The notes under the pieces were generated by a model. The model searched no databases. It was not told the DNA's origin and saw nothing but the letters and a program-made list of their open reading frames with translations. Source: a virus (lineage: Duplodnaviria > Heunggongvirae > Uroviricota > Caudoviricetes). Taken from it: a stretch of 18,011 nucleotides of DNA. The position numbers were made by a program, and so were the translations under genes. Position 1 is the first letter of the stretch; each line of letters begins with the position of its first letter. This document shows, in pieces, positions 1 to 18,011 of this stretch. Location of the stretch: positions 1-18,011 of the IMG/VR virus record IMGVR_UViG_2630968500_000004; one strand, given 5' to 3'.

Positions 1-635
1 AGGTGGGTCAGAAGGTGTTCGCTATCGGCAACCCCTTCGGCCTGGACTGGACGCTCACCACTGGTATCGTCTCCGCGCTCGACCGCTCGTTGCCGGGAGA
101 AGCGGGCGGCCCGGCCATCGATCACCTGATCCAGACCGACGCCGCCATCAACCCCGGCAATTCCGGTGGCCCGCTGCTCGATTCGGCTGGGCGGCTGATC
201 GGAATCAATACCGCCATCTACAGTCCGTCTGGCGCCTCGGCCGGCATAGGCTTTGCGGTGCCGGTCGATACCGTCATGCGCGTGGTGCCGCAACTCATAA
301 AGACCGGCAAGTACATCCGTCCGGCACTGGGCATCGAGGTGGATGAGCAGATCAACGCGCGTCTGCAGGCGCTGACCGGCAGTAAGGGCGTATTCGTATT
401 GCGCGTGACGCCGGGCTCGGCGGCGCACAGGGCCGGGCTCGTCGGCGTCGAGGTCACCGCAGGCGGCATCGTGCCCGGCGATCGCGTTATCAGCATCGAC
501 GGTATCGCCGTCGACGACGTCACCACATTACAGGCCCGGCTAGACGACAAGAACGTTGGAGATGTTGTGGTCTTGTTAGTGGAGCGGGCCGGCAAGACTC
601 GCGAGATGCTTGTGGAACTACAACCGGGAGTTTGA
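1..635 (+). CDS. HtrA/DegP-family periplasmic serine protease, C-terminal part (5' end lies outside the window)
   Basis: ORF 3..635 is open to the left edge. Translation contains the trypsin-like catalytic serine motif GNSGGPL and a C-terminal PDZ-like region (GIEV...VTPGSAA...GDRVISIDG). Region is GC-rich by eye. Confidence 0.8.
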
Positions 636-637
636 TG

Positions 638-1432
638 GAAAGTGGGTCATGGATCTGCACAGCGAAGCAGCCAAGCGACTTCAGCCTTGCGCCGAACTAC
701 GAGCCCTAGCTAGGGATGGTCTGAAGTAGCCCTGTATTTCCGGCTGACTTCAGCCACTGCTGATTTTGAAAGCGGTGAACCGATCAAAAACGATCGGATC
801 ACCCGCTCATTTCGGTGCTTTCAGCCGTCGCGAGCACCTTGCGACGGCCATTTTCCGCATTACAGGCGCACCTCTCCTGCGCTTGCCAGCAAATGTCGGC
901 GGGCCATCCATAGGTTCGACAGGGCAAACAGCGTCACCAGTTGTGCAGTGTTCCTCACCAGCCCTCGGAAACGTACCTTGGTGTAGCCGAACTGCCGCTT
1001 GATCACGCGAAACGGGGGCTCTACCTTCGCTCGCACTTGCGCCTTGGCCTTCTCGATCTTGCGCTTGGCTTTGTACAGGGCGCTGCGTTTATCGAGCATC
1101 TTGTAGGTGCTGCGGCGTGCTGCGACCTGCCAGATCACTTCTCGGTCGGCATGCTCGGAGCGCTTTTCGACGCCGGTGTAGCCGGCATCGGCGCAGACGA
1201 CGTTCTCGTCGCCGTGCAGCAGCTTGTCGACCTGGGTGACATCCGCCACGGTGGCTGCCGTGCCCACCACGCTGTGTACCAGCCCCGATTCATCATCAAC
1301 GCCGATGTGCGCCTTCATGCCAAAGTAATACTGGTTCCCCTTCTTGGTCTGGTGCATTTTCGGGTCGCGCTTGCCGTCCTGGTTCTTGGATGAACTGGGC
1401 GCGTGGATCAGCGTGGCATCGACGATAGTCCA
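638..1432 (-). mobile_element. IS5-family insertion sequence remnant: transposase C-terminal ~190 codons (860..~1432, minus strand), N-terminal third missing
   Basis: C-terminal half of minus ORF 860..2119 (IVDATLIHAPSSSKNQDGKRDPKMHQTKKGNQYYFGMKAHIGVD ... HPFRVIKRQFGYTKVRFRGL ... LFALSNLW) matches the IS5 transposase DDE domain from about residue 120 onward. No frame upstream encodes the IS5 N-terminal region. GGAAAGTGGGTC at 638-649 loosely resembles IS5-group terminal repeats; this and the exact boundaries are tentative. Confidence 0.65.
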
Positions 1433-2119
1433 TCTTGATAATATCGGGCCGCTCAACGCTTGGGTACGGCACGAAATCCAGCTCGACGATGCGCGTCCAC
1501 TGGATGTCGTTATCCTGTCGTTCGTTGGCTTGTGGCTCCTCGTCGAGCAATGTTGGTGCTTCGATGCGGGTGACGACGAAATCCCGAAACTCTCTACTCT
1601 TGCGATCAAAGGGACGTGCCAGCGCATGCCGGTATCAACCAAAGCAAAGGGCACAATTACCCGCTCGGACTCGCCGCTGCTCATCGAGTAGTAGCGGATG
1701 GCGACGGGTCGCTTAGCGTGGATGCCTCGGCAAATCGTGGCTAACACATCCATCTTGGGAATGCTTAGGGCTGCGGGGGATTCGCATGGTAGCAGCGCCT
1801 GCATTGAGCCGTTCACGCCATCGCCAAAACCGAGAGACAGCGCCGACAGAACGCGCAGCGATGCGTGCTCGAACAACGGTGAGAACTCCTGCCCGATGCG
1901 ATAAATCTTGTTGCTACCATCGAAGGTGATGTTATGCGGCGCAATTTCCCGGTACAAAGCCAAATCGCGTGTCGCCCCTGCCGGAGCCACACCGAAGCGC
2001 TCAATCAGATCAGGGCGTCCGATCTCACCGAAGAAATAGAGCCGAAAATCGATGTAGGCCAACCTCTCGCGCTGGACCAAACTCAAGTCCTCAAGCCGCT
2101 TAGAAAGGGAACCAAGCAT
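1433..2119 (-). pseudogene. Disrupted HTH/WYL-like transcriptional regulator gene, frameshifted and fused to the IS5 remnant
   Basis: N-terminal 175 residues of minus ORF 860..2119 look like an HTH followed by a WYL-type motif (RVIVPFALVDTGMRWHV). After about residue 175 the frame becomes S-rich low-complexity, while an alternative frame (minus ORF 1296..1550) carries protein-like sequence, implying a frameshift between about 1550 and 1600. The junction with transposase sequence is near 1432-1440. Confidence 0.4.
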
Positions 2120-2496
2120 GAATCATCACTATAGGGAAAAAATGAATATTTAATACGGTAATCCATAAAGTGCCATGATTATAATCAAATTGATGATAAT
2201 CAGCATTAATACTTATGTAACAGCAAGAATTTATGTCTTAAACGTAGACAGTCATCGTATGGGCTGATGTTTCTATACCGTTAAATTGATGCCATCCAAC
2301 TATAAAACCTTGCTGCCCAATGCCCTATAGCTCCCTCAGGCAATTTGCCCTTATCCACTGTTCTGGTCTGGGGATGAGGGATATCAGAATAACCTAACGA
2401 CTCAGGGACTGGGATCACAGGCAACCGTGGCTCGTCGCTTACCTTAATTCAAATTATTTTCAGATAGATATCATTCTTCTGAACATACCCGATTAA

Positions 2497-2532
2497 CGGC
2501 AGAATCTCACGATTCTGCCGTTTTTGTATAAT
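2497..2532 (+). promoter_or_regulatory. Perfect 10-bp inverted repeat (CGGCAGAATC-tcac-GATTCTGCCG), T5 tract, then TATAAT -10 element upstream of the GTPase gene
   Basis: Arms at 2497-2506 and 2511-2520, TTTTT at 2521-2525, TATAAT at 2527-2532, GGAG at 2541-2544, ATG at 2551. Could be an operator overlapping the promoter or an intrinsic terminator for a lost upstream gene. Confidence 0.4.
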
Positions 2533-2550
2533 TTTTCAGAGGAGTAGCTA

Positions 2551-3414
2551 ATGAACAATTCTGAAGGTTTGAAGTCGTTTCAGCAATCGCTTGCTGGCCT
2601 GCCACAGTGGGTGTCTGAACGTATATTGCAGCAGATAAATCAGTTAACCCATTACGAGCCAGTAATCGGCATTATGGGTAAGAGCGGTGCCGGTAAATCC
2701 TCACTCTGCAATGCCCTGTTTGCCAGTGAGGTATCACCGGTCAGCGATGTGGCGGCCTGTACACGTGAGCCACTGCGCTTTCGCCTGCAGGTTGGCGACC
2801 GCTATATAACGCTGATGGATCTGCCCGGCGTGGGCGAAAGTGGCGCTCGCGATACCGAGTATGCTGCGCTGTACCGCGAACAGCTTCCTCGCCTCGACCT
2901 GGTACTGTGGCTGATTAAGGCCGATGACCGGGCGCTGACGGTGGATGAACATTTTTATCATCAGGTGATTGGAGAGGTATACCGGCATAAGGTGCTGTTT
3001 GTTATCAGCCAGTCGGATAAGGCCGAACCTACCAGCGGTGGGGGACAGTTGTCCACGGCGCAGAAGCAGAATATCAGCCGCAAAATCTGCCTGCTGCATG
3101 AGCTGTTCCAGCCCGTCCATCCGGTGTGTGCTGTGTCGGTCCGTCTACAATGGGGGCTTAAGGTGATGGCCGAGCGGATGATTAAGTGCCTGCCACGTGA
3201 GGCCACCAGCCCGGTGGTGTCGCAACTCCATCCTTCCTTTCGCACGACGGTAGTCCGGGAACAGGCTCGTAGCGATTTTGGTGAAACCGTCGGGGCCGTA
3301 CTCGATAGCATCAGTGCCTTTCCCCTGATACCCGCCCCTGTGCGGGCCGTCATTCAGGCCGTGCGCACCACCGTGGTCTCTGTGGCCCGCGCCGTCTGGG
3401 ATTTCTTCTTCTGA
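2551..3414 (+). CDS. yfjP: P-loop GTPase of the cryptic-prophage YfjP/YeeP/YkfA family
   Basis: 287 aa. Walker A GKSGAGKSS, G3 DLPG, G4 SQSDK. Length and downstream synteny match CP4-57 yfjP; paralog assignment not verified by alignment. Confidence 0.8.
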   Translation: MNNSEGLKSFQQSLAGLPQWVSERILQQINQLTHYEPVIGIMGKSGAGKSSLCNALFASEVSPVSDVAACTREPLRFRLQVGDRYITLMDLPGVGESGARDTEYAALYREQLPRLDLVLWLIKADDRALTVDEHFYHQVIGEVYRHKVLFVISQSDKAEPTSGGGQLSTAQKQNISRKICLLHELFQPVHPVCAVSVRLQWGLKVMAERMIKCLPREATSPVVSQLHPSFRTTVVREQARSDFGETVGAVLDSISAFPLIPAPVRAVIQAVRTTVVSVARAVWDFFF

Positions 3415-3444
3415 GTATTTAATCCATCCCTGTTATTTCCCCGA

Positions 3445-3484
3445 CCCTGTCGCCGATGCGACGGGGATCCCCTTTATTTGTTTT
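3445..3484 (+). terminator. Hairpin plus T-rich tract between the GTPase and DUF932 genes (possible intrinsic terminator or attenuator)
   Basis: 9-bp stem 3445-3453 / 3458-3466 (one G-U wobble), loop CGAT, followed by the T-rich stretch ATCCCCTTTATTTGTTTT. Confidence 0.4.
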
Positions 3485-3505
3485 CCCGTTATGAGGAGTC
3501 TGCTT

Positions 3506-4327
3506 ATGACCCGTCTGGCTTCGCGCTTTGGCGCTGCAAACATTATTCGTCGTGACCGTCCGTTAACCCGCGAGGAGCTGTTTCGCGTGGTGCCCAGTGT
3601 GTTCAGCGAGGATAAACATGAATCCCGTAGTGAACGCTACACCTATATACCCACCATCTCCTTGCTGGACAGCCTGCAGCGAGAAGGCTTCCAGCCATTC
3701 TTTGCCTGTCAGACCCGTGTGCGTGATCCGGAGCGTCGCGAACACACCAAGCATATGCTGCGTCTACGGCGTGAGGGACAGATAACCGGTAAGCAGGTGC
3801 CGGAAATAATCCTGCTCAACTCTCACGATGGCAGCAGTTCGTACCAGATGCTGCCGGGACTATTTCGTGCGGTTTGTCAGAACGGGCTCGTCTGCGGTGA
3901 GTCGTTTGGCGAGGTGCGGGTGCCACACAAGGGGGACGTGGTGAGTCAGGTGATTGAAGGCGCGTATGAGGTGCTGGGGATTTTTGACCGGGTGGAGGAG
4001 AAACGGGATGCCATGCAGTCGTTGCTGTTGCCACCCCCGGCACAGCAGGCACTGGCAAAAGCCGCCCTCACATACCGCTTTGGTGAAGACCACCAGCCGG
4101 TGACTGAATCGCAGATCCTCTCCCCTCGCCGCTGGCAGGATGAGAGCAATGACCTGTGGACCACGTACCAGCGTATTCAGGAGAACCTGATTAAGGGCGG
4201 GCTCAGTGGCCGTAATGCCAAAGGAGGACGGTCACATACCCGTGCCGTTCGCGGTATCGACGGGGACGTGAAACTTAACCGGGCACTGTGGGTGATGGCG
4301 GAAGCCCTGCTCACGCAACTGCAGTGA
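3506..4327 (+). CDS. yfjQ: DUF932-family protein (YfjQ-like)
   Basis: Frame of ORF 3491..4327. Start placed at the internal ATG 3506 because GAGGAG lies 7 nt upstream, giving 273 aa, the length of E. coli YfjQ. Position directly downstream of the GTPase matches CP4-57. Confidence 0.7.
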   Translation: MTRLASRFGAANIIRRDRPLTREELFRVVPSVFSEDKHESRSERYTYIPTISLLDSLQREGFQPFFACQTRVRDPERREHTKHMLRLRREGQITGKQVPEIILLNSHDGSSSYQMLPGLFRAVCQNGLVCGESFGEVRVPHKGDVVSQVIEGAYEVLGIFDRVEEKRDAMQSLLLPPPAQQALAKAALTYRFGEDHQPVTESQILSPRRWQDESNDLWTTYQRIQENLIKGGLSGRNAKGGRSHTRAVRGIDGDVKLNRALWVMAEALLTQLQ

Positions 4328-4356
4328 CCGTTTAATGTTGCTGCTTTGTTAATATC

Positions 4357-4483
4357 GGACACCACCTGTCCGCATCGCACCGTGCTGACGGTCCTCACTC
4401 ACCGAGGGAAGGCCTGTAACCCCCGCTGCCTCTGGCTTTTGCAGAAATGAAAAATAGTTTCTGTGGTGTCCATACCCTGTCCG
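4357..4483 (+). promoter_or_regulatory. Inverted repeat GGACACCAC / GTGGTGTCC, each followed by a CTGTCCG direct repeat, upstream of the WYL regulator gene
   Basis: GGACACCAC 4357-4365 and its exact reverse complement GTGGTGTCC 4463-4471; CTGTCCG at 4366-4372 and 4477-4483. Lies in the 216-bp gap before the regulator ATG at 4544. Confidence 0.35.
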
Positions 4484-4543
4484 ACCCCCTCTTTAAAGTA
4501 ATCACATCATTTTCAGTCAGTTAACTTTCACGGAGAACGTCTC

Positions 4544-5245
4544 ATGACACAGGCAGAACGCCGCCATGACCGGCTGGCTGTCAGGCTGTCACTGATAATC
4601 AGCCGTCTGGTGGCAGGGGAAACGCTGAGTGTGCGTAAGCTTGCCGCTGAGTTTGGTGTGTCGGTGCGCACGCTGCGGCGTGATTTTCGTGAGCGGCTGA
4701 TGTATCTGGACCTGGAGTATCAGTCCGGATATTGCCGCTTACGCACTGCGGGCAGTGAGACGCAGATGGTGCCCGACGTGCTTATCTTTGCCCACCGCAG
4801 CGGGATGGCCGGTCTTTTCCCTGGCTTTGACCGTCGTCTGGTAAACGCACTGCTGATGTGCGATGAGTCTCCCTGCGTAATCGCACCCGCCAGTCCGGTT
4901 CCTTCGCCATCAGGCGCATTGTCTTTCTGGCGACTGATTCAGGCCATTACCGGGCGCAGGCGGGTGACTCTGATTGCCGAGGGGCAGCGCTGTGAGCGGC
5001 TGGCTCCCTGCCGGTTACTTATCCACCAGCAGGCCTGGTATCTGGTGGCAGAGCACGACGGACATATCGCCGTATTCTCCCTGGATGAAATCCATCTGAT
5101 TCAGCCTTTGCAGGAGACTTTTCGCCGCAATGACAGTCTGTGTCGCCTGGTTGAAGACCCGGTCTTCATTCAGGCCTTACCCCATTTTCGCTTTATCCAG
5201 CATTCACTGCTTACGTTTGTTCCGGCTGACAGCCCACCGGAATAG
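4544..5245 (+). CDS. yfjR: HTH/WYL-domain transcriptional regulator (YfjR-like)
   Basis: 233 aa. N-terminal HTH-like region ([20 protein letters not shown]) and a WYL motif ([22 protein letters not shown]). GGAG 8 nt upstream of the ATG. Length equals E. coli YfjR. Confidence 0.8.
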
Positions 5246-5285
5246 CGCAGGCGTTGTTATCAACGCGGCAACAGGGAGGAGCCCA

Positions 5286-5522
5286 GTGCCCGTTATTGCC
5301 ATTATCGCCATTGTTATCATCGTCATCATTCTGAACAAAACCGGAGTGTCCGACAGCCTCACGGCCTTGACACTTGCAACCGTTGCCGCACTACTGACGG
5401 GAGGTGGCGCAGCCGGTGCTGCCAGTGTCGCGCTGACGCCGTTCGTCGGCGTGCCAGTGGGTATTTTTGTGGGAATTTATGTCTTTGCCAAAGTGGTTCG
5501 TCTGATTTCAGGGAAAAAATAA
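5286..5522 (+). CDS. Small hydrophobic inner-membrane protein (78 aa)
   Basis: GTG start 5286 preceded by GGGAGGA with 5-nt spacing, within the frame of ORF 5130..5522. Translation is almost entirely hydrophobic (VPVIAIIAIVIIVIIL ... GIFVGIYVFAKVV). Stop TAA overlaps the next ATG (TAATG). Occupies the ypjK position of CP4-57; symbol not asserted. Confidence 0.5.
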   Translation: MPVIAIIAIVIIVIILNKTGVSDSLTALTLATVAALLTGGGAAGAASVALTPFVGVPVGIFVGIYVFAKVVRLISGKK

Positions 5523-5965
5523 TGAAACGTAAAACACTACCTCTGCTGGCGCTGGTTGCCACCTCTCTGTTTCTGAGCGCCTGCGATGACAGCAGTGATG
5601 ACCTCAAAGCTATCAGTAAATTTAAGGACCTCACGCCTCCGCGCTTCAGCGATGTGGTCAGTCGGCAGGATGATGTCAGCGAAGAATGGTCACAGGTTGG
5701 CTTTTCATCAGGTCTCACCCTGCAGGTCTTACGTACCCGTGAGTCGCCCGATGGCTGCGAGGGCGGTAGTTACTACTACCTCGTGGATATGCAGGAAAAA
5801 ACCATCCAGCCGCTGATGAATGCGCTGTGTATTGCCGATAACATCAAACTGGAATACCAGGAGGTGACGGACCCGTATACCAAAGAAAAATACTTTGAGT
5901 ACGCCCATGACGGCAAACTGATGGGGCAGCTACTGATACCCTCGAACCCTGACAATCAGGAATAA
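5522..5965 (+). CDS. yfjS: Lipoprotein (YfjS-like)
   Basis: 147 aa. Signal peptide with lipobox LSAC (MKRKTLPLLALVATSLFLSAC). Length and position match E. coli YfjS. Confidence 0.7.
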   Translation: MKRKTLPLLALVATSLFLSACDDSSDDLKAISKFKDLTPPRFSDVVSRQDDVSEEWSQVGFSSGLTLQVLRTRESPDGCEGGSYYYLVDMQEKTIQPLMNALCIADNIKLEYQEVTDPYTKEKYFEYAHDGKLMGQLLIPSNPDNQE

Positions 5966-5987
5966 AACAACGACAAAGGAGACAAGA

Positions 5988-6455
5988 ATGACAATACTTT
6001 CACTAAGTCGGTTTATGCTGGCGGGTGTACTGCTCGCGAGCTTTAATGCCTCTGCTATCCCGGGGTTCTGGCAGCAGGGTTACGGTCAGGGCAATACGGA
6101 ATACAGCGTGACCGAAGCCAGCGGAAAGACGTTTACCATCAACTGCACAGGGAACCCGGACCAGAATGGTTTCTATCAGCATTCAGTCTTTCTTACCCTT
6201 GCCGATGACAAGATGGTCAGTTCGCACGATGACGACACTACTATCACCGTAGTGATGGATCACCAGCAGTACATTATTCCGTCCAGCCTGGGCTGGCGTA
6301 ACGGCGATAACGCCTGGTTTGACTTCATCAGCAATATCTCTGAGGCCGGGCAGTTCGACGTCTACGTCAATGACCACAAAGCAGGGACCTTCACTGCGGA
6401 CCGGAAGAACACTGAGAAAGTTCTGTCCACTCTCGGAGACTGCAGCAACGACTGA
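5988..6455 (+). CDS. yfjT: Secreted/periplasmic protein (YfjT-like)
   Basis: 155 aa. N-terminal signal peptide ([23 protein letters not shown]). AGGAG upstream. Length and position match E. coli YfjT. Confidence 0.7.
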
Positions 6456-6481
6456 TAGTAGTATCTTCCCCAGCAAATCCA

Positions 6482-6516
6482 CCCCGACAGCTAGCAGGCT
6501 GCCGGGGTTTTCTTTT
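6482..6516 (+). terminator. Rho-independent terminator after the yfjT-like gene
   Basis: 10-bp stem CCCCGACAGC 6482-6491 / GCTGCCGGGG 6498-6507 with one A-C mismatch, followed by TTTTCTTTT. Confidence 0.55.
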
Positions 6517-6531
6517 ATCAGGAGCCCGAAA

Positions 6532-6681
6532 ATGACCCAATCCGTGTTGCTGCCACCGGGGCCTTTCACCCGGAGACAAGCGCAAGCGGTCACTACCACG
6601 TACAGCAATATCACACTCGAAGACGACCAGGGCAGTCACTTCCGTCTGGTGGTTCGTGATACTGAAGGCCGGATGGTCTGA
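6532..6681 (+). CDS. Small hypothetical protein (49 aa)
   Basis: ATG 6532 with GGAG 8 nt upstream, directly after the terminator; in frame with listed ORF 6319..6681. No recognisable family. Confidence 0.3.
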
Positions 6682-6868
6682 CGGGCATGGAACTTTGAGC
6701 CGGATGCCGGTGAAGGTCTTAACCGCTATATCCGCACCTCAGGCATCCGTACAGACACGGCCACCCGCTGATCGCGAAGCATTTACCCGCATTCACCTCC
6801 CCGAACACACTTTATATCCCCATACGCCAGCCATCGCCGCTGGCGTTTTTATTGACGGAGACATACCC

Positions 6869-7327
6869 ATGACAACACAGACGCAGCACGACCTCGCACC
6901 CGCTAACCAACCCGAATTTGAACTGACCGTCACGCCGGTCCCCGATGAACAGCGTATCGATTTCTGGCCACAGTACTTTGGCGCTATCCCGCAGTGGCTA
7001 CTCCTGGAGCCGCATATCTTCGCCTGGATGGACCGCTTCTGTGAGGGCTACAGCGGTGGTATCTGGTCGTTCTACACCCTCAGCAATGGCGGCGCATTTA
7101 TGTCCCCCGAGCCTGACAACGATGAGACATGGCGTCTGTTTAACTGCCTGAACGGTAACGATGCCCAAATGAGTGCAGAAGCAGCAGGTATTGCTGTCTG
7201 CCTGATTGCGTATAGCCACCATGCCTGCCGTACAGAATGTGACGCGATGACCGCACACTATTACCGCCTGCGGGAGTATGCCATGCAACATCCAGAGGCT
7301 CACGCCATTCTGCGTATTATCGACTGA
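6869..7327 (+). CDS. yfjX: Antirestriction-family protein (YfjX-like)
   Basis: Frame of ORF 6656..7327. Start set to the internal ATG 6869 (GGAG 9 nt upstream), giving 152 aa, the length of E. coli YfjX; the upstream extension looks non-coding. Family call is by resemblance, not alignment. Confidence 0.7.
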   Translation: MTTQTQHDLAPANQPEFELTVTPVPDEQRIDFWPQYFGAIPQWLLLEPHIFAWMDRFCEGYSGGIWSFYTLSNGGAFMSPEPDNDETWRLFNCLNGNDAQMSAEAAGIAVCLIAYSHHACRTECDAMTAHYYRLREYAMQHPEAHAILRIID

Positions 7328-7342
7328 CCGAAGGAGCAACAG

Positions 7343-7819
7343 ATGAAACAGCTTTCCTTTTTACCCGGCGAGATGACGCCACAGGACCGGCGTCTCATTC
7401 AGCGGGCGCTCAGGGCTCTGGACCGCCACCTGCATGAGCCCGGCGTAGCCTTCACCTCTACCCACGCCGTACGTGAATGGCTGCGACTGCATATGGCCGC
7501 GCTTGAGCGGGAAGAGTTCCGGGTGTTGTATCTGGACAACCAGAATCAGTTGATTGCCCATGAAACGCTCTTCACCGGCACGATTAACCGCACCGAGGTG
7601 CATCCCCGGGAGGTGGTCAAACGTGCTCTGCACTTCAACGCGGCGGCGGTGATACTCGCGCATAACCATCCTTCCGGCGAGACGACACCTAGCCAGGCCG
7701 ACAAAACCCTCACGCAGCGACTGGTTCAGGTGCTTCAGCTGGTGGATATCCGTGTCCCTGACCATCTGATTGTCGGTGGCAGGCAAATCTATTCGTTCGC
7801 AGAACACGGTCTGCTTTGA
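7343..7819 (+). CDS. yfjY: RadC-like JAB-domain protein (YfjY/YeeS/YkfG family)
   Basis: 158 aa with the JAMM-type motif HNHPSG and the conserved PSQAD segment. AGGAG upstream. Confidence 0.85.
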   Translation: MKQLSFLPGEMTPQDRRLIQRALRALDRHLHEPGVAFTSTHAVREWLRLHMAALEREEFRVLYLDNQNQLIAHETLFTGTINRTEVHPREVVKRALHFNAAAVILAHNHPSGETTPSQADKTLTQRLVQVLQLVDIRVPDHLIVGGRQIYSFAEHGLL

Positions 7820-7827
7820 GGTATTAC

Positions 7828-8049
7828 ATGAAAATTATCAGTAAACGCAGGGCAATGACGATATACCGCCAGCATCCTGAGTCCCGAATCTTTCGCTACT
7901 GCACCGGCAAATACCAGTGGCACGGTAGCGTCTGTCATTACACCGGCAGGGACGTTCCGGATATCGCCGGAGTCCTCGCGGTATACGCCGAACGCCGCCA
8001 GGACCGCAATGGGCCCTATACCTGCCTGATGAGCATCACCCTGAACTGA
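7828..8049 (+). CDS. ypjJ: DUF987-family small protein (YpjJ/YeeT-like)
   Basis: Frame of ORF 7816..8049. ATG 7828 preferred (GAGG upstream; 7816 is a TTG inside the RadC stop region). Sequence pattern RIFRYCTGKYQWHGS ... GPYTCLMSITLN is typical of YeeT/YpjJ proteins. Confidence 0.7.
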   Translation: MKIISKRRAMTIYRQHPESRIFRYCTGKYQWHGSVCHYTGRDVPDIAGVLAVYAERRQDRNGPYTCLMSITLN

Positions 8050-8067
8050 CAATAGTGGAGAACTGTA

Positions 8068-8747
<680 letters not shown>

Positions 8748-8811
8748 ACATTGCGTACAACCTTCCCGATTTACATTTCTGAACTTCCTCCCTTGTTTAC
8801 CTATTGCGTAA

Positions 8812-8847
8812 TGCGCCTGCTACTACCCGGCAGGCGCGTTATCTTTT
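8812..8847 (+). terminator. Rho-independent terminator after the toxin gene
   Basis: Perfect 8-bp stem GCGCCTGC 8812-8819 / GCAGGCGC 8829-8836, 9-nt loop, then GTTATCTTTTT. Confidence 0.6.
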
Positions 8848-9275
8848 TACGGACAAACAATCATGCAACCAGAAGTTGAAGTATTAACCGATCATAATGA
8901 GCTAATTTGTTCGAGCTTTATTGAACACATTGCCAACACATTAAATTTAGGAGTGGTGTACAACTAAACCTGCAGCCAAGGATGTATAGTGAGCGAAGCC
9001 CTATCAGGCCTTTTTGGTCAGTAGATAAGATTGATCTTCGTTGATAGAATTTACTTACACCAGCTGTTACATTAAGATAATTTTTTGGTGGGAGAATGAT
9101 AAGATCTTACGTAACAATTTGATTTTAATGGTGCGATAATAGGAACAATACCTAACGATCAATCACCATGATTTAAATGAATTTTTATGCTTTCGATTTT
9201 CTCACATACCCCCAAAAGTACCCCCACATTGTTTTTCGTCTCAATTTTGGGGTATGCGCTTACCAAGAAACACAG

Positions 9276-9464
9276 CTAACGCCGTGGTGATGGTTTGCGC
9301 CAGTGGTACTCTTGCGCGGTCATGCGTTGACGATGGCGCTCTTTTGCTGCGAGTGTACCGGCGACTCTACACCGCAATTCAAGCTTGTCAGCAGCATTTA
9401 GCGTAACCCCCTGCTGAGTTGCCATCTCGACTATAGCAGACTCGATCACTTCTGATTTCAGCAT
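9276..9464 (-). CDS. Small hypothetical protein (62 aa)
   Basis: Frame of minus ORF 9276..9473. ATG 9464 preferred because GAGGTGG lies 8 nt upstream. Last gene of the minus-strand operon. No family recognised. Confidence 0.4.
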   Translation of the reverse strand: MLKSEVIESAIVEMATQQGVTLNAADKLELRCRVAGTLAAKERHRQRMTAQEYHWRKPSPRR

Positions 9465-9515
9465 GAAAACCACCTCGCAAATATTGTTATATGTGACATG
9501 TCACCGAGCACACTA

Positions 9516-9989
9516 TTAGCCCATAAACCGACGATAAGCCTCTCCGGCTTCTTCTGCGGTAAGGCTTGTGGTCTCCGCCCTGATCGGCCCGCCGTCCTTA
9601 CCTGTAGTCTCGACTTTCAGCTTATTGGTGTAAGCATCTCCGCACTCTTTTGCGGCCTGTTCGATCAGCTGCGCCGTCAATGCGTAGTTTTTTATCGCCT
9701 CGGCTCGGTTTGCCATACGATCCAGCATTCGCAACCGGTACGCTTTGTTAGCGATCGGGATATCGGATATTTCACTCTGGAACCGGGCGCGAGTGTGGTT
9801 AAAGAGCTCGACCCACTTTTTGCTAAGATTTTTAGCCATCGAATTTTCAGGGTTGTAGGCCGATATCTGCTGCCGGGTAACAACGATACCAAAATCTTGT
9901 TTTACAAGTTCGACAATTCTTGATGGAGGTTCATAGCAGGCTAAAGATTGAATAATCATCACCTTAGCCATAGTTGGTAATGCTGCCAT
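9516..9989 (-). CDS. Phage small-terminase-like / DUF2280-like protein (tentative)
   Basis: 157 aa. N-terminal segment (IIQSLACYEPPSRIVELVKQDFGIVVTRQQISAY) resembles the HTH-type N-terminus of DUF2280 / small-terminase-like phage proteins as I remember them. Recognition is from memory and unverified. Confidence 0.45.
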   Translation of the reverse strand: MAALPTMAKVMIIQSLACYEPPSRIVELVKQDFGIVVTRQQISAYNPENSMAKNLSKKWVELFNHTRARFQSEISDIPIANKAYRLRMLDRMANRAEAIKNYALTAQLIEQAAKECGDAYTNKLKVETTGKDGGPIRAETTSLTAEEAGEAYRRFMG

Positions 9990-10081
9990 CGCTCACCTTT
10001 TGACAAAGGAAATCAAAGTAGCGCACTGAGTTCTGACCTCCCGCGCCGCTACTTAAAGTTACATATCACGCCATCTGACCG

Positions 10082-10261
10082 TCACCCTACGTTATTTCGC
10101 ATGGTTTCCGCTGTGCGAGATTCTTCGCTGATCGCACTCTCACCGAAGCTGCCAATACCATCTGGTTCCGGCTGCCCGTTGATATCATCCAGCCAGGTAC
10201 GAACCTTACCATTCTGGCTGGCTCCGCTTTCTTCTGGTTTCAGTTTTTCAATATTGCTCAT
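10082..10261 (-). CDS. Small acidic hypothetical protein (59 aa), absent from the ORF track
   Basis: Hand translation of the minus strand: MSNIEKLKPEESGASQNGKVRTWLDDINGQPEPDGIGSFGESAISEESRTAETMRNNVG. Its ATG (10261-10259) overlaps the spike-gene stop TGA (10260-10258) as ATGA, suggesting translational coupling. Confidence 0.3.
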   Translation of the reverse strand: MSNIEKLKPEESGASQNGKVRTWLDDINGQPEPDGIGSFGESAISEESRTAETMRNNVG

Positions 10262-10920
10262 TGTGGTTTTCCTGTGTTGCTGCCGCCTGATTGTACACCG
10301 CCGTGGGTATGGTTAATCTGGCTGATACCGTTGGCCGTTTGGTCGCCAGTGGAAGTGATCGTTCCGTTTACCTGCACGGGCCCGTTAAGGGTGATTTGAG
10401 AGCTGGTAATCGTAATGGCTCCACCAGCGGCCACTTCTACAAATGCCGCGCCATCATCGGTTCGCAGCTGCGCGGCGCTGGTACTGATACCGCTGATTTT
10501 CTTCACCTGCGACTGCGGGCCAGGAATCACGAACGCATCCGACAGATCTAAAACACGCCCGTCAGCTCGCTCCTGCACACCGCCGTTTTGCCACCAGAAA
10601 TCAATCGAACGCGAAGAGAATACGATAAGGCACTCATCACCTTCTTTGATAGGGAAGGTCAGGGTCACGCCACCGCCACGAGGGAACACAACTGGCAAAT
10701 CAACCAGAATAGGATACCTAACTGATTCATACTGATAGTCTTCCTCGACGGTGCCGGGTTTCGTCATTCTGGCAATTATTGCTACGTCGACGTCACAGGT
10801 CACTGTTTCCGGGTCAAATGAACGGATAATGCCTGGTAAGGCATTCTTTACCGCAGCATTGCTATTGCTCTGTATTTGGTTAACCGTATCTTGCTCATTG
10901 GCAGGTCGAATAAATGGCAT
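10258..10920 (-). CDS. Phage baseplate central spike protein, gpV / Gp138-type
   Basis: Frame of minus ORF 10258..10965. N-terminal LPGIIRSFDPETVTCDVDVAI is an OB-fold-like spike signature; C-terminus INHTHGGVQSGGSNTGKP carries the HxH apex motif typical of P2 gpV-type spikes. Start chosen at ATG 10920 (GGGG 5 nt upstream); the alternative TTG at 10965 would overlap the preceding gene. Confidence 0.6.
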   Translation of the reverse strand: MPFIRPANEQDTVNQIQSNSNAAVKNALPGIIRSFDPETVTCDVDVAIIARMTKPGTVEEDYQYESVRYPILVDLPVVFPRGGGVTLTFPIKEGDECLIVFSSRSIDFWWQNGGVQERADGRVLDLSDAFVIPGPQSQVKKISGISTSAAQLRTDDGAAFVEVAAGGAITITSSQITLNGPVQVNGTITSTGDQTANGISQINHTHGGVQSGGSNTGKPQ

Positions 10921-10930
10921 AGCTACCCCA

Positions 10931-11278
10931 TCAACCTGATATACGTTTACAGTCAAACGAGCCAATAATGCGAGGCTCGTCCATATTGCCGCGAATCAAC
11001 TCAACATTAAGCCAGCGTTTATTGCTTCCGTTCGGGTGAATGTATTCAAAGCCGTACATATTCCCATCACGCGCAGGCATCAATGTCATCTCAACTTTGA
11101 GTCCATCATCACCGAGTTCAGTAATTTTTTGAGATGTAACCATTTCCCCGTTAACTCTTGTCATTTCGCCGACTTTGGCAACAAGATTGAAGTTTCCACA
11201 TTGTGAAATTACTGTTCCAGTATTTGCTAAAGCATTAGTGGAAAGTATCACGGATAAGAAAATGAATGTTTTTTTCAT
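10931..11278 (-). CDS. Secreted protein with a cleavable signal peptide (115 aa), low-GC insert
   Basis: N-terminus MKKTFIFLSVILSTNALA followed by NTG: a classic Sec signal with an AxA site and no lipobox cysteine. Codon usage is visibly AT-richer than both flanking genes. Two cysteines in the mature part. Confidence 0.6.
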   Translation of the reverse strand: MKKTFIFLSVILSTNALANTGTVISQCGNFNLVAKVGEMTRVNGEMVTSQKITELGDDGLKVEMTLMPARDGNMYGFEYIHPNGSNKRWLNVELIRGNMDEPRIIGSFDCKRISG

Positions 11279-11282
11279 GCAG

Positions 11283-12374
11283 TTACCACTTATTTAGTGT
11301 TTCGCCAGAATAAATATCAGTAGCGCCCCGAGCTTCACAAGCCAGATCCATATACCATGCCTGCCCTCTGGTATCGCCGGTATAATTTATATACCGAACC
11401 TTATAAACACCGTCAGTTGCAATGCTGGCAGGTTGAGAGGTTGGTGGCGCATCAATCAGGTTTCCATTGGCATCCTTGATCTTCGTTATTGGTACAAGGT
11501 TTCCATCAATATCTTTTTCGACAAATCGCCCACTAAATATATCCTGATTCGACAATGGATTGCGGTACACCGACGCCTGATCCAACTGAATAAGCCCATT
11601 CAGTTGAATACTTGAATTGATTAAACAGCGTACATTAACCCCAGCTCCGATAGTTTGCTGAGGCATGCCCACCAGCCCAGTATTTGAGTTTAATACTACG
11701 GCCTGATGTGCCGCTGTATCTCTGGCAATCATGTCGACCTTGCCGTAACTAAACTGCCAGGTAGCCTTACACTGCGCAGCTACCTCATCAAGATAGTTAT
11801 GCACGTAACCAAAGAAAGCTCGCCCGCGAGGAAATACCGTTGATGGAAAAACCGGAGTGATACCGCGCCCGATACCATAGGGTTCCAAGCTCGTCATGAG
11901 AAGGTTATAGACGTCTTCAGTGGTGTAGCCTTTCTGAATGGTCGTACTGACGAACGCGCTGACAAACGCTTCTTCTGAATCACAGGCCTGCACGAGAATC
12001 CAGGAATCGACGAGATTATCCTTACCGGTCACTGTAAAACGGATATCACCGCTAAAGATCATCCCATAGTTTTGCCCATTGGTTTGACCTACCTGGTCAG
12101 GTGAAATCTCCCGGACGACACCAACTTCACTCTCCTGAACATCCTTAGCCAGGCCATCATATCCCGCTATCAGAACAATCTTGGCAAACTCACGCTGCAT
12201 AATACGGTTCTGAGTGGTCGGTGAAAGGTTGTAGATCTTGACCGTCGCGACAGCTGGCCATTTGTTATCGTTACGCTCTATATCAAAGGTAACTTTGAAA
12301 TCACTAAGGCTAATTCCTTTGCCATTCTCATCGATGAGCTGTAGCTCGAAATGGCGCATCCAGTTATATGACAT
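11283..12374 (-). CDS. Phage tail/baseplate protein, possibly a gpD-like hub (tentative)
   Basis: 363 aa, with an AGGAA ribosome-binding site. N-terminal beta-rich pattern (HFELQLIDENGKGISLSDFKVTFDIERNDNKWPAVATVKIYNLSP) resembles the N-terminal domain of P2 gpD / Mu gp44 hub proteins, and it sits upstream of the spike gene as in Mu-like tail modules. The coding call is solid; the hub assignment is weak. Confidence 0.5.
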   Translation of the reverse strand: MSYNWMRHFELQLIDENGKGISLSDFKVTFDIERNDNKWPAVATVKIYNLSPTTQNRIMQREFAKIVLIAGYDGLAKDVQESEVGVVREISPDQVGQTNGQNYGMIFSGDIRFTVTGKDNLVDSWILVQACDSEEAFVSAFVSTTIQKGYTTEDVYNLLMTSLEPYGIGRGITPVFPSTVFPRGRAFFGYVHNYLDEVAAQCKATWQFSYGKVDMIARDTAAHQAVVLNSNTGLVGMPQQTIGAGVNVRCLINSSIQLNGLIQLDQASVYRNPLSNQDIFSGRFVEKDIDGNLVPITKIKDANGNLIDAPPTSQPASIATDGVYKVRYINYTGDTRGQAWYMDLACEARGATDIYSGETLNKW

Positions 12375-12379
12375 AGTCG

Positions 12380-12547
12380 TTATTCCTGAATTGATGCCAG
12401 CGCTTTCGCCACCAGCCCACGGGCAATTTGATGGACAGACGGCGCTACGCCAATATCGGAGCGCTGACGTTCGCGCTCCTGGATCTTGCAGATTGCGGCG
12501 AACTGGTCGCCAGAGAGTAATACCGGCTTAACGTTTGGCTTTTTCAT
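12380..12547 (-). CDS. Small basic hypothetical protein (55 aa)
   Basis: Frame of minus ORF 12380..12640. ATG 12547 preferred (GGAGTG 6 nt upstream). Overlaps the 3' end of the upstream gene by about 20 nt. Confidence 0.4.
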   Translation of the reverse strand: MKKPNVKPVLLSGDQFAAICKIQERERQRSDIGVAPSVHQIARGLVAKALASIQE

Positions 12548-12716
12548 CCTGTTCACTCCAGAACCGTGCGTTTGCTTCGTTGAGGTTTGCATTGTTGCGA
12601 CACTCGCGATCGAAGTTATTGCGAGCCTTTGCCGCCTCAAGGTCTTGCCGGGTCAGCATCGGACGGCGTGTACTCTGTGGGTTGCCTGCTGCTAATTTTG
12701 GGTTGTATGTAGCCAT
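12528..12716 (-). CDS. Small hypothetical protein (62 aa)
   Basis: Frame of minus ORF 12528..12725. ATG 12716 preferred: strong TAAGGAGTG ribosome-binding site 8 nt upstream. Confidence 0.45.
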   Translation of the reverse strand: MATYNPKLAAGNPQSTRRPMLTRQDLEAAKARNNFDRECRNNANLNEANARFWSEQDEKAKR

Positions 12717-12728
12717 GCTGATCACTCC

Positions 12729-13280
12729 TTACCTTGTGCGGTGCCAGAAGCTGGCATTATCGGTGTTGATCTGGCGGAGAGAGTCGCCAGTGGTGAGAGT
12801 CTTCGGCGTTACGTTATTGGCCTTCATGTAGTCGCCCACCTGCTCCAGCACGTCGATAGCCTGATCCAGCGGGATTTCTGACAGCGGGGTCGGGTGTACG
12901 GCGCTGAACGCCTCAACAGGGGCATAGCGCAGCACATCGAGCGCGACAATGCGCGGGTCGGCGTCGGGCAGCGCTGAATCGTACTTTGGCGCTACGGCGC
13001 GTACCAGCCGCATGAACTCGGCATTCATGGCCGTTGGTGCTGTAGACGTTGGAGAAGCGCCGCTACCACTTCGGGTAATCATGTCACTATCGCGGGTGTA
13101 CATACGACGCAAACGGTCGCCGGTTGCAATGCGTGTAGCGCGTTCCTGTTTAAGCGTTGTTGCAAGATTTGCAATGATAGCCGCTACCTGTGCGTTACAG
13201 GCAAATACGGCTTCGCTTCCATCCGCGAACGTGACCACCCCGCTTTCACCAGATATAGAGATGTTTGAGATTTCTTGCAT
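12729..13280 (-). CDS. Hypothetical protein (183 aa), first gene of the minus-strand operon
   Basis: ATG at 13280-13278; long ORF with no recognisable family by eye. Followed by tightly spaced or overlapping downstream genes. Confidence 0.55.
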   Translation of the reverse strand: MQEISNISISGESGVVTFADGSEAVFACNAQVAAIIANLATTLKQERATRIATGDRLRRMYTRDSDMITRSGSGASPTSTAPTAMNAEFMRLVRAVAPKYDSALPDADPRIVALDVLRYAPVEAFSAVHPTPLSEIPLDQAIDVLEQVGDYMKANNVTPKTLTTGDSLRQINTDNASFWHRTR

Positions 13281-13314
13281 GGTTCAGAACCTTAGTAATT
13301 GCTCGAATTCTGAT

Positions 13315-13333
13315 CATTGCACAAATTGCAATG
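13315..13333. promoter_or_regulatory. Operator-like palindrome CATTGCA-n5-TGCAATG upstream of the minus-strand operon
   Basis: 7-bp arms at 13315-13321 and 13327-13333. ATTGCACA recurs at 13406-13413. Located 35-55 bp upstream of the 183-aa gene start. Confidence 0.3.
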
Positions 13334-13428
13334 TTAGTAAATATCGTTGCGAATATTGAAATAATAAATCAACCTGTTACTATGGATATGAGTCACTATT
13401 GTGTGATTGCACAGCATGGTTAACAAAA

Positions 13429-13462
13429 GCCCGCGCCTCTCCAAGCGTGGGCTTTTTCTTTT
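13429..13462. terminator. Rho-independent terminator, potentially bidirectional
   Basis: 8-bp stem GCCCGCGC 13429-13436 / GCGTGGGC 13445-13452 (one G-U wobble), loop CTCTCCAA, TTTTTCTTTTC downstream and ACAAAA upstream. Confidence 0.5.
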
Positions 13463-13842
13463 CTGGTCAGCAACGTGTCTCTTTCCCTCATCGGTTACTT
13501 AAAAAATCGATTCCACGCCCGGTATACCCTTCAATCCCTCAAGCCATGCGCTTGCCAAGCCCATCATGTATACAAAACCGGGCAAAAATACATTGAGGGG
13601 TATACAGCCATACCCCAGCAGTGGCAGGGGTTAGGAGGCATTGATTATCAATGCGTGGGGTGTGATAACTTTTTGTGGATTTATTCAGCAAAAACACATC
13701 GGTGTATCCGGTGATGCGGTCAGAGATCTGACACGTTCCCCCCCCTGGTGATCGGCGGAAAAGTCCGCCGATGCTGATGCTGGCCTAACCTGCTTTCGAT
13801 GTTTTCGTTTTAGAGAAAACGCTATAGATAAACAAAAACATG

Positions 13843-14133
13843 TTGGTTCAGTCGGTTCAGTTGGTTCAATTTGTAAAGATTGTTGTTTTATAAGGTTTAT
13901 TTATTGATGAGTGAACCAACAAAGCCATGTTTTGAACCAACAATCGCTATTTTCGTGTTGGTTCAGTGGGAAAGATTTACAGGCCAGCCAGAAAAGGGTG
14001 TTGGTTCAATAGCGGTATTTGTTGGTTCAAAATGGGCGTTTGTTGGTTCAGTGTTGGTTCACTTATGAACATATAAGTATATTAAATACATACAGTTATC
14101 TTAATTATGTAGTTACTGAACCAACTGAACCAA
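13843..14133. repeat. Iteron array: 12 copies of the octamer TTGGTTCA / TGAACCAA (one degenerate); candidate origin of replication
   Basis: Forward copies at 13843, 13853 (cGGTTCA, degenerate), 13861, 13958, 14001, 14022, 14043, 14054. Reverse copies at 13912, 13933, 14117, 14126. Irregular spacing, AT-rich context, immediately 3' of the primase-helicase gene. Confidence 0.7.
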
Positions 14134-14158
14134 CAAAAAACAATCTCGTGTGTGTGCT

Positions 14159-16840: not shown

Positions 16841-17055
16841 GGCTTAACCTCATCCACTGATTGAAACTCTGTTAAAAAACGCAAATCCGACTGCATACAC
16901 GGCGATGAGTAGCCATCACGATAAAATGTCACTCTGTTGAATCGGTAGCTTTCCACCGTCACCAGACAACCCCGCTTATCCTTCCATTTATCGCCTTTAC
17001 GAATCACAGGGCGAGCGAAGCCACTGGCAAGAGAGCCAGTTAATTTCTTTTCCAT
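16837..17055 (-). CDS. Hypothetical protein (72 aa) overlapping the primase start
   Basis: Stop overlaps the primase ATG; AAAGG upstream. No family recognised; not AlpA-like by eye. Confidence 0.45.
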   Translation of the reverse strand: MEKKLTGSLASGFARPVIRKGDKWKDKRGCLVTVESYRFNRVTFYRDGYSSPCMQSDLRFLTEFQSVDEVKP

Positions 17056-17057
17056 GG

Positions 17058-17354
17058 TTATTTACCTTTCGTCATCTGACGACACTGATATTCCGCATTG
17101 GCTGCGGTATCAGATAACGCTCGCGCCAGCGGCATTAATTCCATCAGCATCCCACCAATATCTCGGAAATCTGTTGCTGACGGCTCATATTCACCGTTCT
17201 CAGCACCACCAGCGTAGAACATCATCTTACCTACAGCGGCGATCCCATTCAGGATGCTATCGGCGGCGCACTCAGCACGGGAAGACAGCATCTGGAGATC
17301 AGATTTATCGGTATCAGGGAAATCGGTGCGCACAAAATCGTTGTAAAGGTTCAT
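17058..17354 (-). CDS. Hypothetical protein (98 aa) coupled to the recombinase gene
   Basis: ATG overlaps the recombinase stop (ATGA); GGAGGT 5 nt upstream. No family recognised. Confidence 0.45.
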   Translation of the reverse strand: MNLYNDFVRTDFPDTDKSDLQMLSSRAECAADSILNGIAAVGKMMFYAGGAENGEYEPSATDFRDIGGMLMELMPLARALSDTAANAEYQCRQMTKGK

Positions 17355-18011
17355 GCTGTGACCTCCATAGCCAGACGTGACTGGATCGCGGATGCTTTAC
17401 TACCGAGCTGTAAATAGGTGCGGGTAATAGCCGGGTTGCTATGCCCCAGCATTTCAGAAGCCACCAGCAAGCCTTGCTCACCGCCTGCTGACATGAGGTT
17501 AAACGCGGCTATTTTGCGACTGGAGTATGCGCTAAGGCGCAGCTTGGCGTTAATGAAACGGGTGAACCACTGCATAACATCATGCAGCTTGCGCCAGATA
17601 GTCTGGCGAGTAACGCTACCTTCCAGACATTGGCAACGGTTACTTTCGATTTGAGAGCGGGAAAATACCAGGTCGTCCTCTACCAGATTCCGATCCTGAC
17701 GGTCACGCAGCCGCTTGATGATGCCTGGCGGTAACTGCTTGGTGTCGTGTTTGACGTCAGCCTTTGCCACCAGCTCGAATACTATGGCCTGTTCTTCGCC
17801 GTTCATGTCGGCGGCCAGTTCGTCACAACCGATGCTATCCCACTTCATGTAGGCGATATGATCAGCGGCCATCCGGGCGGCATCCTTACGTTGCTGGCGC
17901 ACAATCTCGATACCTTTGCGGGTTGCCCGCGCTTCGGCGGCTTTGGTTTGCTTGGCAACGATAATTGTCGCCTGCCCCGTTTCCCAATTGACGCAGGAAT
18001 AGCGGAGGGTG
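17351..18011 (-). CDS. Tyrosine-type site-specific recombinase/integrase, C-terminal catalytic part (5' end lies outside the window)
   Basis: Reading frame stays open to the window edge; the listed start at 17902 is an internal GTG. C-terminus has a tyrosine-recombinase-like pattern (LGHSNPAITRTYLQ, with an upstream conserved-arginine region). Family call by eye. Confidence 0.55.
   Translation of the reverse strand, partial: TLRYSCVNWETGQATIIVAKQTKAAEARATRKGIEIVRQQRKDAARMAADHIAYMKWDSIGCDELAADMNGEEQAIVFELVAKADVKHDTKQLPPGIIKRLRDRQDRNLVEDDLVFSRSQIESNRCQCLEGSVTRQTIWRKLHDVMQWFTRFINAKLRLSAYSSRKIAAFNLMSAGGEQGLLVASEMLGHSNPAITRTYLQLGSKASAIQSRLAMEVTA

Follow-up and report, generated by a model that had tools for sequence, protein, structure and literature searches.

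The locus examined here raises the question of whether a sharp change in base composition marks the place where foreign DNA was joined to a bacterial island and, if it does not, where the true joints lie. It occupies the left end of an 18,011-nucleotide (nt) stretch of DNA filed as a Caudoviricetes virus (IMG/VR record IMGVR_UViG_2630968500_000004, positions 1 to 18,011; hereafter, the window). The initial annotation placed a breakpoint at position 2119, beside a 12-nt match to the bacteriophage T7 class III promoter, and offered three explanations: a real foreign-DNA scar, an assembly chimera, or a vector- or phage-derived junction. We are highly confident that the region is the right edge of the Escherichia coli locus of heat resistance (LHR), also called the tLST (transmissible locus of stress tolerance), a type of island associated with heat and chlorine resistance. 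This edge is fused through a broken IS5-family transposase (tnp) gene to a dead copy of brxR, inside a CP4-6-type island beside thrW; the drop in guanine-cytosine (GC) content at 2119 is a coding/intergenic boundary, and the 12-mer is a product of chance. A foreign-DNA scar is thus the correct description of the region as a whole, but not of a breakpoint at 2119.

The DNA of E. coli strain G5 is identical to the entire window (100%), and that of E. coli C is 97.8% identical over positions 1-9144. In both genomes, RefSeq annotates the complete LHR gene set directly upstream, outside the window (hsp20, clpK, ftsH-like, hsp20-GI, yfdX1/2, hdeD-GI, trx-GI, kefB-GI, psiE-GI, htpX, and the S1C protease gene); the ftsH-like gene of E. 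coli C is frameshifted. The window begins 517 nt into the S1C protease gene degP-GI, which is 1152 nt long and intact in both strains, and the "truncated protease gene" initially reported is therefore cut solely by the window edge. Its product matches the NCBIfam Do/HtrA family (E=5e-60). The GC content of the degP-GI segment is 63.9%; that of the LHR has been published as 61.8%, with mobile elements flanking the island, one of them at its 3' end (PMC4563881; PMC5514686). To the right of the protease gene, RefSeq lists an "IS5 family transposase, incomplete" in both strains, the Prokaryotic Genome Annotation Pipeline (PGAP) calls a "BrxR family HTH regulator, incomplete" (HTH, helix-turn-helix) in a 99.9%-identical strain, and the brxR remnant is followed in RefSeq by the core of a CP4-6-type island (GTPase-DUF932-YfjR-...-YafW-YkfI), which extends as far as thrW. 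From left to right, the region comprises degP-GI (orf16) with its probable terminator, the stump of the tnp gene that invariably trails the LHR, the brxR stump, an AT-rich spacer, 37 codons of tnsE, and the GTPase gene (Table 1).

The joint that created this arrangement was located by a three-way alignment of the window, an intact copy of the IS5-family gene (L005), and an intact brxR from the leuX island (L003). LHR plasmids of Klebsiella, Enterobacter, and other hosts match the window over 1-1429 only and then run on into an intact tnp gene encoding 323 amino acids, whereas intact brxR loci match it from 1426 rightwards. The shared TAGT at 1426-1429 lies in the interior of both genes. With neither gene cut at its end, the joint would be the product of illegitimate recombination of the microhomology type, as opposed to the end of a transposition. 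Transposition was considered as the cause and ruled out, the joint being inside the tnp gene and away from the terminus of the insertion sequence (IS). A 200-nt stretch spanning this joint is carried by 115 of 5,426 complete E. coli genomes, and no other joint in the region is linked to the LHR.

Table 1. Features of the left part of the window, with the evidence for each
Feature	Position	Strand	Evidence or location
degP-GI (orf16), 3' part; last LHR/tLST gene	1..635	+	Annotated in RefSeq on identical DNA (E. coli C, G5)
Hairpin GGTGAACCGATC-n6-GATCGGaTCACC	774..803	+	Downstream of orf16
IS5-family tnp remnant, "3' mobile element" of the LHR	860..1429	-	NF033581, Pfam DDE_Tnp_1
Chimeric open reading frame, 419 codons	860..2119	-	Open reading frame list, profile matches
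True novelty joint, 4-bp TAGT microhomology, interior of IS5 tnp gene / interior of brxR	1426..1429		Three-way alignment
brxR pseudogene; winged helix-turn-helix (wHTH)-WYL-WCX defense-island repressor family	1430..2119	-	Homology to L003, PGAP
Native AT-rich tnsE-brxR intergenic spacer (31% GC) with brxR promoter region	2120..2280		Aligns with L003, L008, and L010 spacers
TCACTATAGGGA, identical to T7 promoter -8..+4	2126..2137	+	7-18 nt upstream of brxR ATG, opposite strand, inside brxR 5' leader
Inverted repeat TGATTATAATCAA-T-TTGATGATAATCA	2176..2202		57-83 nt upstream of brxR ATG
Tn7-like tnsE remnant, last 37 codons and stop	2281..2394	-	tblastn with TnsE of pPEC403_1
Older joint (~2395) and region upstream of GTPase gene, with hairpin and T-run at 2495-2522	2395..2550		End of TnsE homology; island matches
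ykfA/yfjP-type GTPase gene, first of conserved CP4-6-like core	2551..3414	+	RefSeq annotation

The two stumps are damaged to different degrees. The transposase remnant matches NF033581 (E=1e-63, profile positions 110-285 of 285) and Pfam DDE_Tnp_1 (E=2e-34). It was correctly recognized as truncated, but the loss is larger than the N-terminal third first supposed: compared with the intact L005 copy, about 133 of 323 codons (the N-terminal ~41%) are gone, and the C-terminal ~190 codons (59%) are left. In brxR, codons 1-169 are in frame and 94% identical at the amino acid level to the intact L003 protein; a 4-bp deletion follows at about 1613/1614, and the last ~71 codons, including the 3' end, are absent. 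The family assignment was made through PDB and Pfam, with the L003 protein matching the BrxR structure of E. fergusonii (7QFZ, E=2.7e-87) and 7T8K (E=1.4e-23); no NCBIfam model matched the intact protein. The WYL match of the pseudogene stops at 47 of 70 profile positions, and the copy lacks an intact WYL and WCX part.

As the initial annotation noted, the frameshifted WYL-like gene is read through into the transposase as a single open reading frame (ORF). Residues 1-169 of this 419-residue chimera are BrxR/WYL-like and residues 223-404 belong to the IS5-family DDE transposase; between the BrxR N-terminus and the in-frame transposase C-terminus lie 61 out-of-frame brxR codons. We consider it very unlikely that the ORF is a selected, functional fusion in which the core of a DDE transposase would carry a DNA-binding wHTH head. 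Its promoter region and start codon are intact, and the frame, kept in 115 genomes, stays open through both lesions, an outcome to which we assign a chance of approximately 3% (our own estimate: 61 stop-free codons at 56.5% GC, multiplied by 1/3 for the frame). However, all copies are at least 99% identical, so their conservation reflects recent common descent, and the read-through is no evidence of selection. Moreover, the middle section has the wrong frame, both the transposase and the WYL domain are incomplete, PGAP marks both pieces as pseudogenes, and derivatives exist in which part of the ORF is deleted. The chimeric ORF is an accident of two lesions and a curiosity.

The base composition was described initially as GC-richer in the first 2.1 kb than everywhere to the right. 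This applies only to positions ~1-600 (64-67% GC); the segment 636-2119 (55-60%) has the same GC content as 2551-8747 (55.5%), and values of 61-62% occur in some 300-nt windows further right. The reported change within a few bases of 2119 is real, GC content falling from 0.52 (2070-2119) to 0.26 (2120-2169), and it is the one observation that favors a recombination joint at this position, where GC-rich foreign DNA would have been fused to AT-rich host or island DNA. Such a joint is nevertheless hardly credible. What begins beside position 2119 is an AT-rich dip of 430 nt (2120-2550, 38.5% GC), to the right of which GC content is back at 55%, and 2117-2119 is the brxR start codon. Greedy likelihood segmentation of the sequence found no step at 2119, nor did it isolate the dip, which is a dip rather than a step. 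Homology with three independent loci carrying intact brxR runs straight across the position: the leuX island L003 is 92.6% identical over 1426-2276, the Tn7-like element of plasmid pPEC403_1 (L008) 77% over 1426-2394, and the Enterobacter asburiae plasmid pAR0468_1 (L010) 91% over 1426-4313 in a single block. In all three, brxR has 55-57% GC and the spacer upstream of it 31-35%. Since the same step stands beside intact brxR in three unrelated loci, it is native to the gene and its promoter region. The real joints are those at 1426-1429, between the IS5 and brxR remnants, and at ~2395, between the tnsE remnant and the GTPase module.

The AT-rich spacer carries a sigma70-like match on the minus strand (2221-2193), the -10 element of which is overlapped by the inverted repeat at 2176-2202; in L003 and L008, no other part of the spacer is conserved as well as this repeat. 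E. fergusonii BrxR binds an 11-bp inverted repeat located between PbrxR and brxR on pEFER (PMC9122601), and, by analogy with this layout, the repeat in the window is a putative operator that BrxR may bind. Nothing between 636 and 2550 is expected to be functional, except possibly an active, unrepressed brxR promoter. It is conceivable, although very unlikely, that with BrxR inactivated this promoter (~2193-2221) would be constitutive, and that leftward transcripts from it would cross the chimeric ORF and enter the heat-resistance operon at its 3' end in antisense, which could yield a wHTH-only BrxR fragment cross-talking with other BrxR-controlled defense islands in the same cell, or could modulate degP-GI.

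Beyond the spacer, a tblastn search with the annotated TnsE of pPEC403_1 identified the end of a tnsE gene (76% identity, E=6e-15), the alignment terminating exactly at the stop codon; TnsE homology ends at 2394-2396. When plasmids were searched with window positions 1430-2460, 91 records covered at least 80% of the query, and tnsE adjacent to a WYL/brxR gene is annotated in nearly all of the plasmid matches listed. Neither tnsABCD nor transposon ends are present in the annotation of the window. On the other side of the joint, 2452-2560 has counterparts upstream of the GTPase genes of other islands, K-12 included. The ~2395 joint is also present in L010 beside intact brxR and is therefore older than the arrival of the LHR.

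The 12-mer at 2126-2137 is present and exact, as initially reported, but it is regarded as a coincidence. With the T7 class III promoter (TAATACGACTCACTATAGGGAGA) it shares 12 consecutive bases (-8..+4), and such an exact match is expected 0.002 times in the window, which is what speaks for a T7-type promoter or a segment derived from a vector or a T7-like phage. The surrounding site agrees with the T7 consensus (-17..+6) at only 15 of 23 positions and at 2 of 9 over -17..-9, its flanks being the brxR start codon and the spacer. The specificity loop of T7 RNA polymerase reads positions -11 to -9; where the promoter has GACT at -11..-8, the window has TCAT, so that only -8 matches and -9, -10, and -11 are mismatched. 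No site in the window comes within three mismatches of the T7 23-mer, and another site in the window scores higher (16/23). Per 5-Mb genome, ~0.6 exact copies of the 12-mer are expected, or about one per two E. coli genomes, and ~7 matches to one or another 12-nt sub-window of the T7 consensus. A blastn search with positions 2100-2560 against 50,697 phage records gave no match, and the corresponding position reads TCACTATATAGG in L003 and TAGCTACAAAAT in L008, the motif being altered in these two of the three homologs. The remark that the match may simply be chance is thereby borne out, the vector- or phage-derived junction is refuted, and a working T7-type promoter or phage segment at this position has practically no likelihood.

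For an assembly chimera there is only the mosaic look of the region, and we regard this explanation as refuted, giving it virtually no credence, because the same sequence recurs, at least 99% identical, in 102-118 complete genomes that come from a wide range of laboratories, hosts, and countries, as well as in a Citrobacter freundii plasmid, and distinct secondary deletion derivatives exist. Positions 1-2160 of the window are found at no less than 99% identity over at least 80% of their length in 102 complete E. coli genomes, among them E. coli C and NCTC strains. The Citrobacter freundii plasmid, p6_A (L006, 254 kb), carries the whole composite, from the LHR through the IS5, brxR, and tnsE remnants and the CP4-type core to a CbtA-family toxin gene, at 99.8% identity (L006 1-17744), which indicates that the block moves as a unit between chromosome and plasmid and between genera. 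Strains 99COLEC, CP61_Sichuan, RM9513, and 2017-01-4CC lack the LHR and retain a 186-nt IS5 stub with the brxR remnant, fused to a fragment of a major facilitator superfamily (MFS) transporter gene beside mmuP/mmuM; strain EC2641 has a different truncation. Where this stub is kept, as in 99COLEC (L004, 7218-8006), the MFS pseudogene annotated by PGAP runs on across it.

The arrangement without the LHR is preserved on pAR0468_1, where an intact brxR encoding 301 amino acids is accompanied by helicase, DUF4391, endonuclease, and methyltransferase genes. In this plasmid (L010 1-10124), brxR heads a cluster encoding an SNF2/HKD-type helicase, DUF4391, ATP-dependent endonuclease, DUF2130, and DNA methyltransferase proteins, and this cluster and the same GTPase/DUF932 module are divergently arranged. 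A related cluster, with SNF2/HKD helicase, DUF4391, and type III restriction-modification genes, is located at leuX in E. coli of the CFT073 type (L003). The DUF4391 protein has no PADLOC model. Defense genes thus stand beside brxR in L003 and L010, and in the window their place is taken by the IS5 remnant and the LHR.

From these arrangements we infer the following order and mechanism. A module consisting of the tnsE remnant, brxR, and defense genes would have become the variable cargo of a CP4-type island, in divergent orientation to its GTPase gene, as L010 still shows. One illegitimate recombination would then have fused the LHR, together with the IS5 element behind it, into brxR at TAGT, displacing the defense genes. 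The 4-bp deletion that frameshifts brxR may have arisen before or after this event. The composite would have spread afterwards through E. coli genomes and to p6_A, and some strains would have lost the LHR later by further deletions.

Several observations weigh against this reconstruction or limit its precision. Intact brxR was found at this exact chromosomal position in no E. coli genome; the state before the LHR is taken from a 91%-identical Enterobacter plasmid, which is no direct ancestor, and the order of events is reconstructed from it. The description of the remnants as non-functional is based on their lesions and on PGAP pseudogene calls. One homolog, L010, does retain the exact 12-mer, which makes its lack of conservation less than universal. 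The IS element, too, is poorly delimited at its outer end. The initial annotation suggested defining its inverted repeats from intact copies; such copies follow the LHR in L005 and L009, but inverted-repeat searches and local alignments in both revealed no convincing inverted repeats or target duplication, and the two copies lose homology right at the tnp start codon. The boundary between the LHR and the IS element is bracketed only to 713-848. IS1 matches swamped a search of plasmids with this element, which otherwise gave only an Acinetobacter LHR match ending at window position 713 and, over the coding region, a similarity of 82% to ISPsy2.

The hairpin downstream of orf16 is probably the LHR terminator that Mercer et al. 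(2015) predicted 177 bp past this gene (PMC4563881), and a perfect 12-nt palindrome occupies the corresponding place in L005. Strain FAM21845 was described with one 3' transposase gene (PMC5514686), and its right flank is the same as that of the window. A review reports IS5, IS3, and Tn7 elements flanking the tLST (PMC8290217); another paper (PMC12603250) contains nothing on the flanks of the island. On its left (L001/L007), the LHR is flanked by an accumulation of transposase fragments (IS3, IS110 or group II intron, IS256, and others) adjoining a 5'-truncated mhpA. The interval from thrW to mhp therefore measures only ~30 kb in these LHR strains, compared with ~100 kb in K-12.

To the right of the joints, the CP4-6-like core runs to ykfI at 8747 and is carried by 479 genomes. 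A perfect hairpin with a 12-bp stem, followed by a T-run, lies at 2495-2522, 29 nt before the GTPase start codon, and the 100 nt around it recur with 88% conservation in an unannotated stretch upstream of the GTPase gene in another K-12 island; the hairpin would be a terminator-like element pointing into the gene start. The core contains a second WYL-domain gene, yfjR (4544-5245), which is intact and distinct from the brxR remnant, and ykfF (DUF905, 6532-6771), annotated with an internal stop in G5 and intact in E. coli C. Homology with E. coli C stops at 9144, after 16 nt of the tRNA-Thr 3' end (thrW, 9129-9144), and this 16-nt end looks like an attachment-site repeat. Positions 9145-18011 form a separate integrative element inserted into thrW in G5, with a TOPRIM/DUF927 primase gene (14159-16840, minus strand), an Icd-like gene, and small phage-like genes; two tyrosine recombinase genes lie just past the window. 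ARAGORN detected no complete tRNA in the window, only these 16 nt of thrW, and Rfam yielded no RNA family anywhere in the window.

The locus is a genuine scar of horizontal transfer, though an ordinary one, on the border of a well-known island. The LHR/tLST with IS5 and Tn7 flanks has been published, every piece of the scar is already annotated as a pseudogene in RefSeq, and the value of the region as a discovery is little. It has three modest uses: the TAGT joint at 1426-1429 is an exact diagnostic marker for one LHR lineage; the variable end of a CP4-6-type island can be seen to carry the LHR in place of a former BrxR-controlled phage-defense cluster; and strains that lost the LHR later yet keep the scar become recognizable. 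The general lesson is that neither a sharp GC drop at a start codon nor a 12-nt identity to a famous promoter is evidence of a junction.

Compared with known systems, the window agrees with the LHR/tLST in its high GC content and in its flanking mobile elements, IS fragments being present on both sides in E. coli C and G5, and positions 1-1429 are 98.7-100% identical to the LHR 3' end and the trailing IS5-family tnp gene in many genomes and plasmids. The island itself does not differ; the trailing tnp gene, intact in Klebsiella and Enterobacter plasmids and in some E. coli, is cut here at 1429 and fused to the brxR remnant. With CP4-6/CP4-57 of K-12, the window shares the core (GTPase, DUF932, YfjR, YpjK, YafY, YkfB, YkfF, antirestriction, RadC/JAB, YkfH, YafW, and YkfI) and the location beside thrW, but its variable end holds the LHR instead of the K-12 cargo. 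As in Tn7-like transposons carrying defense cargo 3' of tnsE, the tnsE end, spacer, and brxR follow each other in this order; in contrast to them, only 114 nt of tnsE are left, joined at ~2395 to a CP4-type island. BrxR/CapW regulators (Picton 2022; Luyten 2022; PDB 7QFZ, 7T8K) share with the remnant the sequence of its N-terminal 169 codons (94% identical to the L003 homolog) and, as in pEFER, an inverted repeat between the predicted promoter and the gene, whereas the window copy is a frameshifted, 3'-truncated pseudogene whose defense genes are gone.

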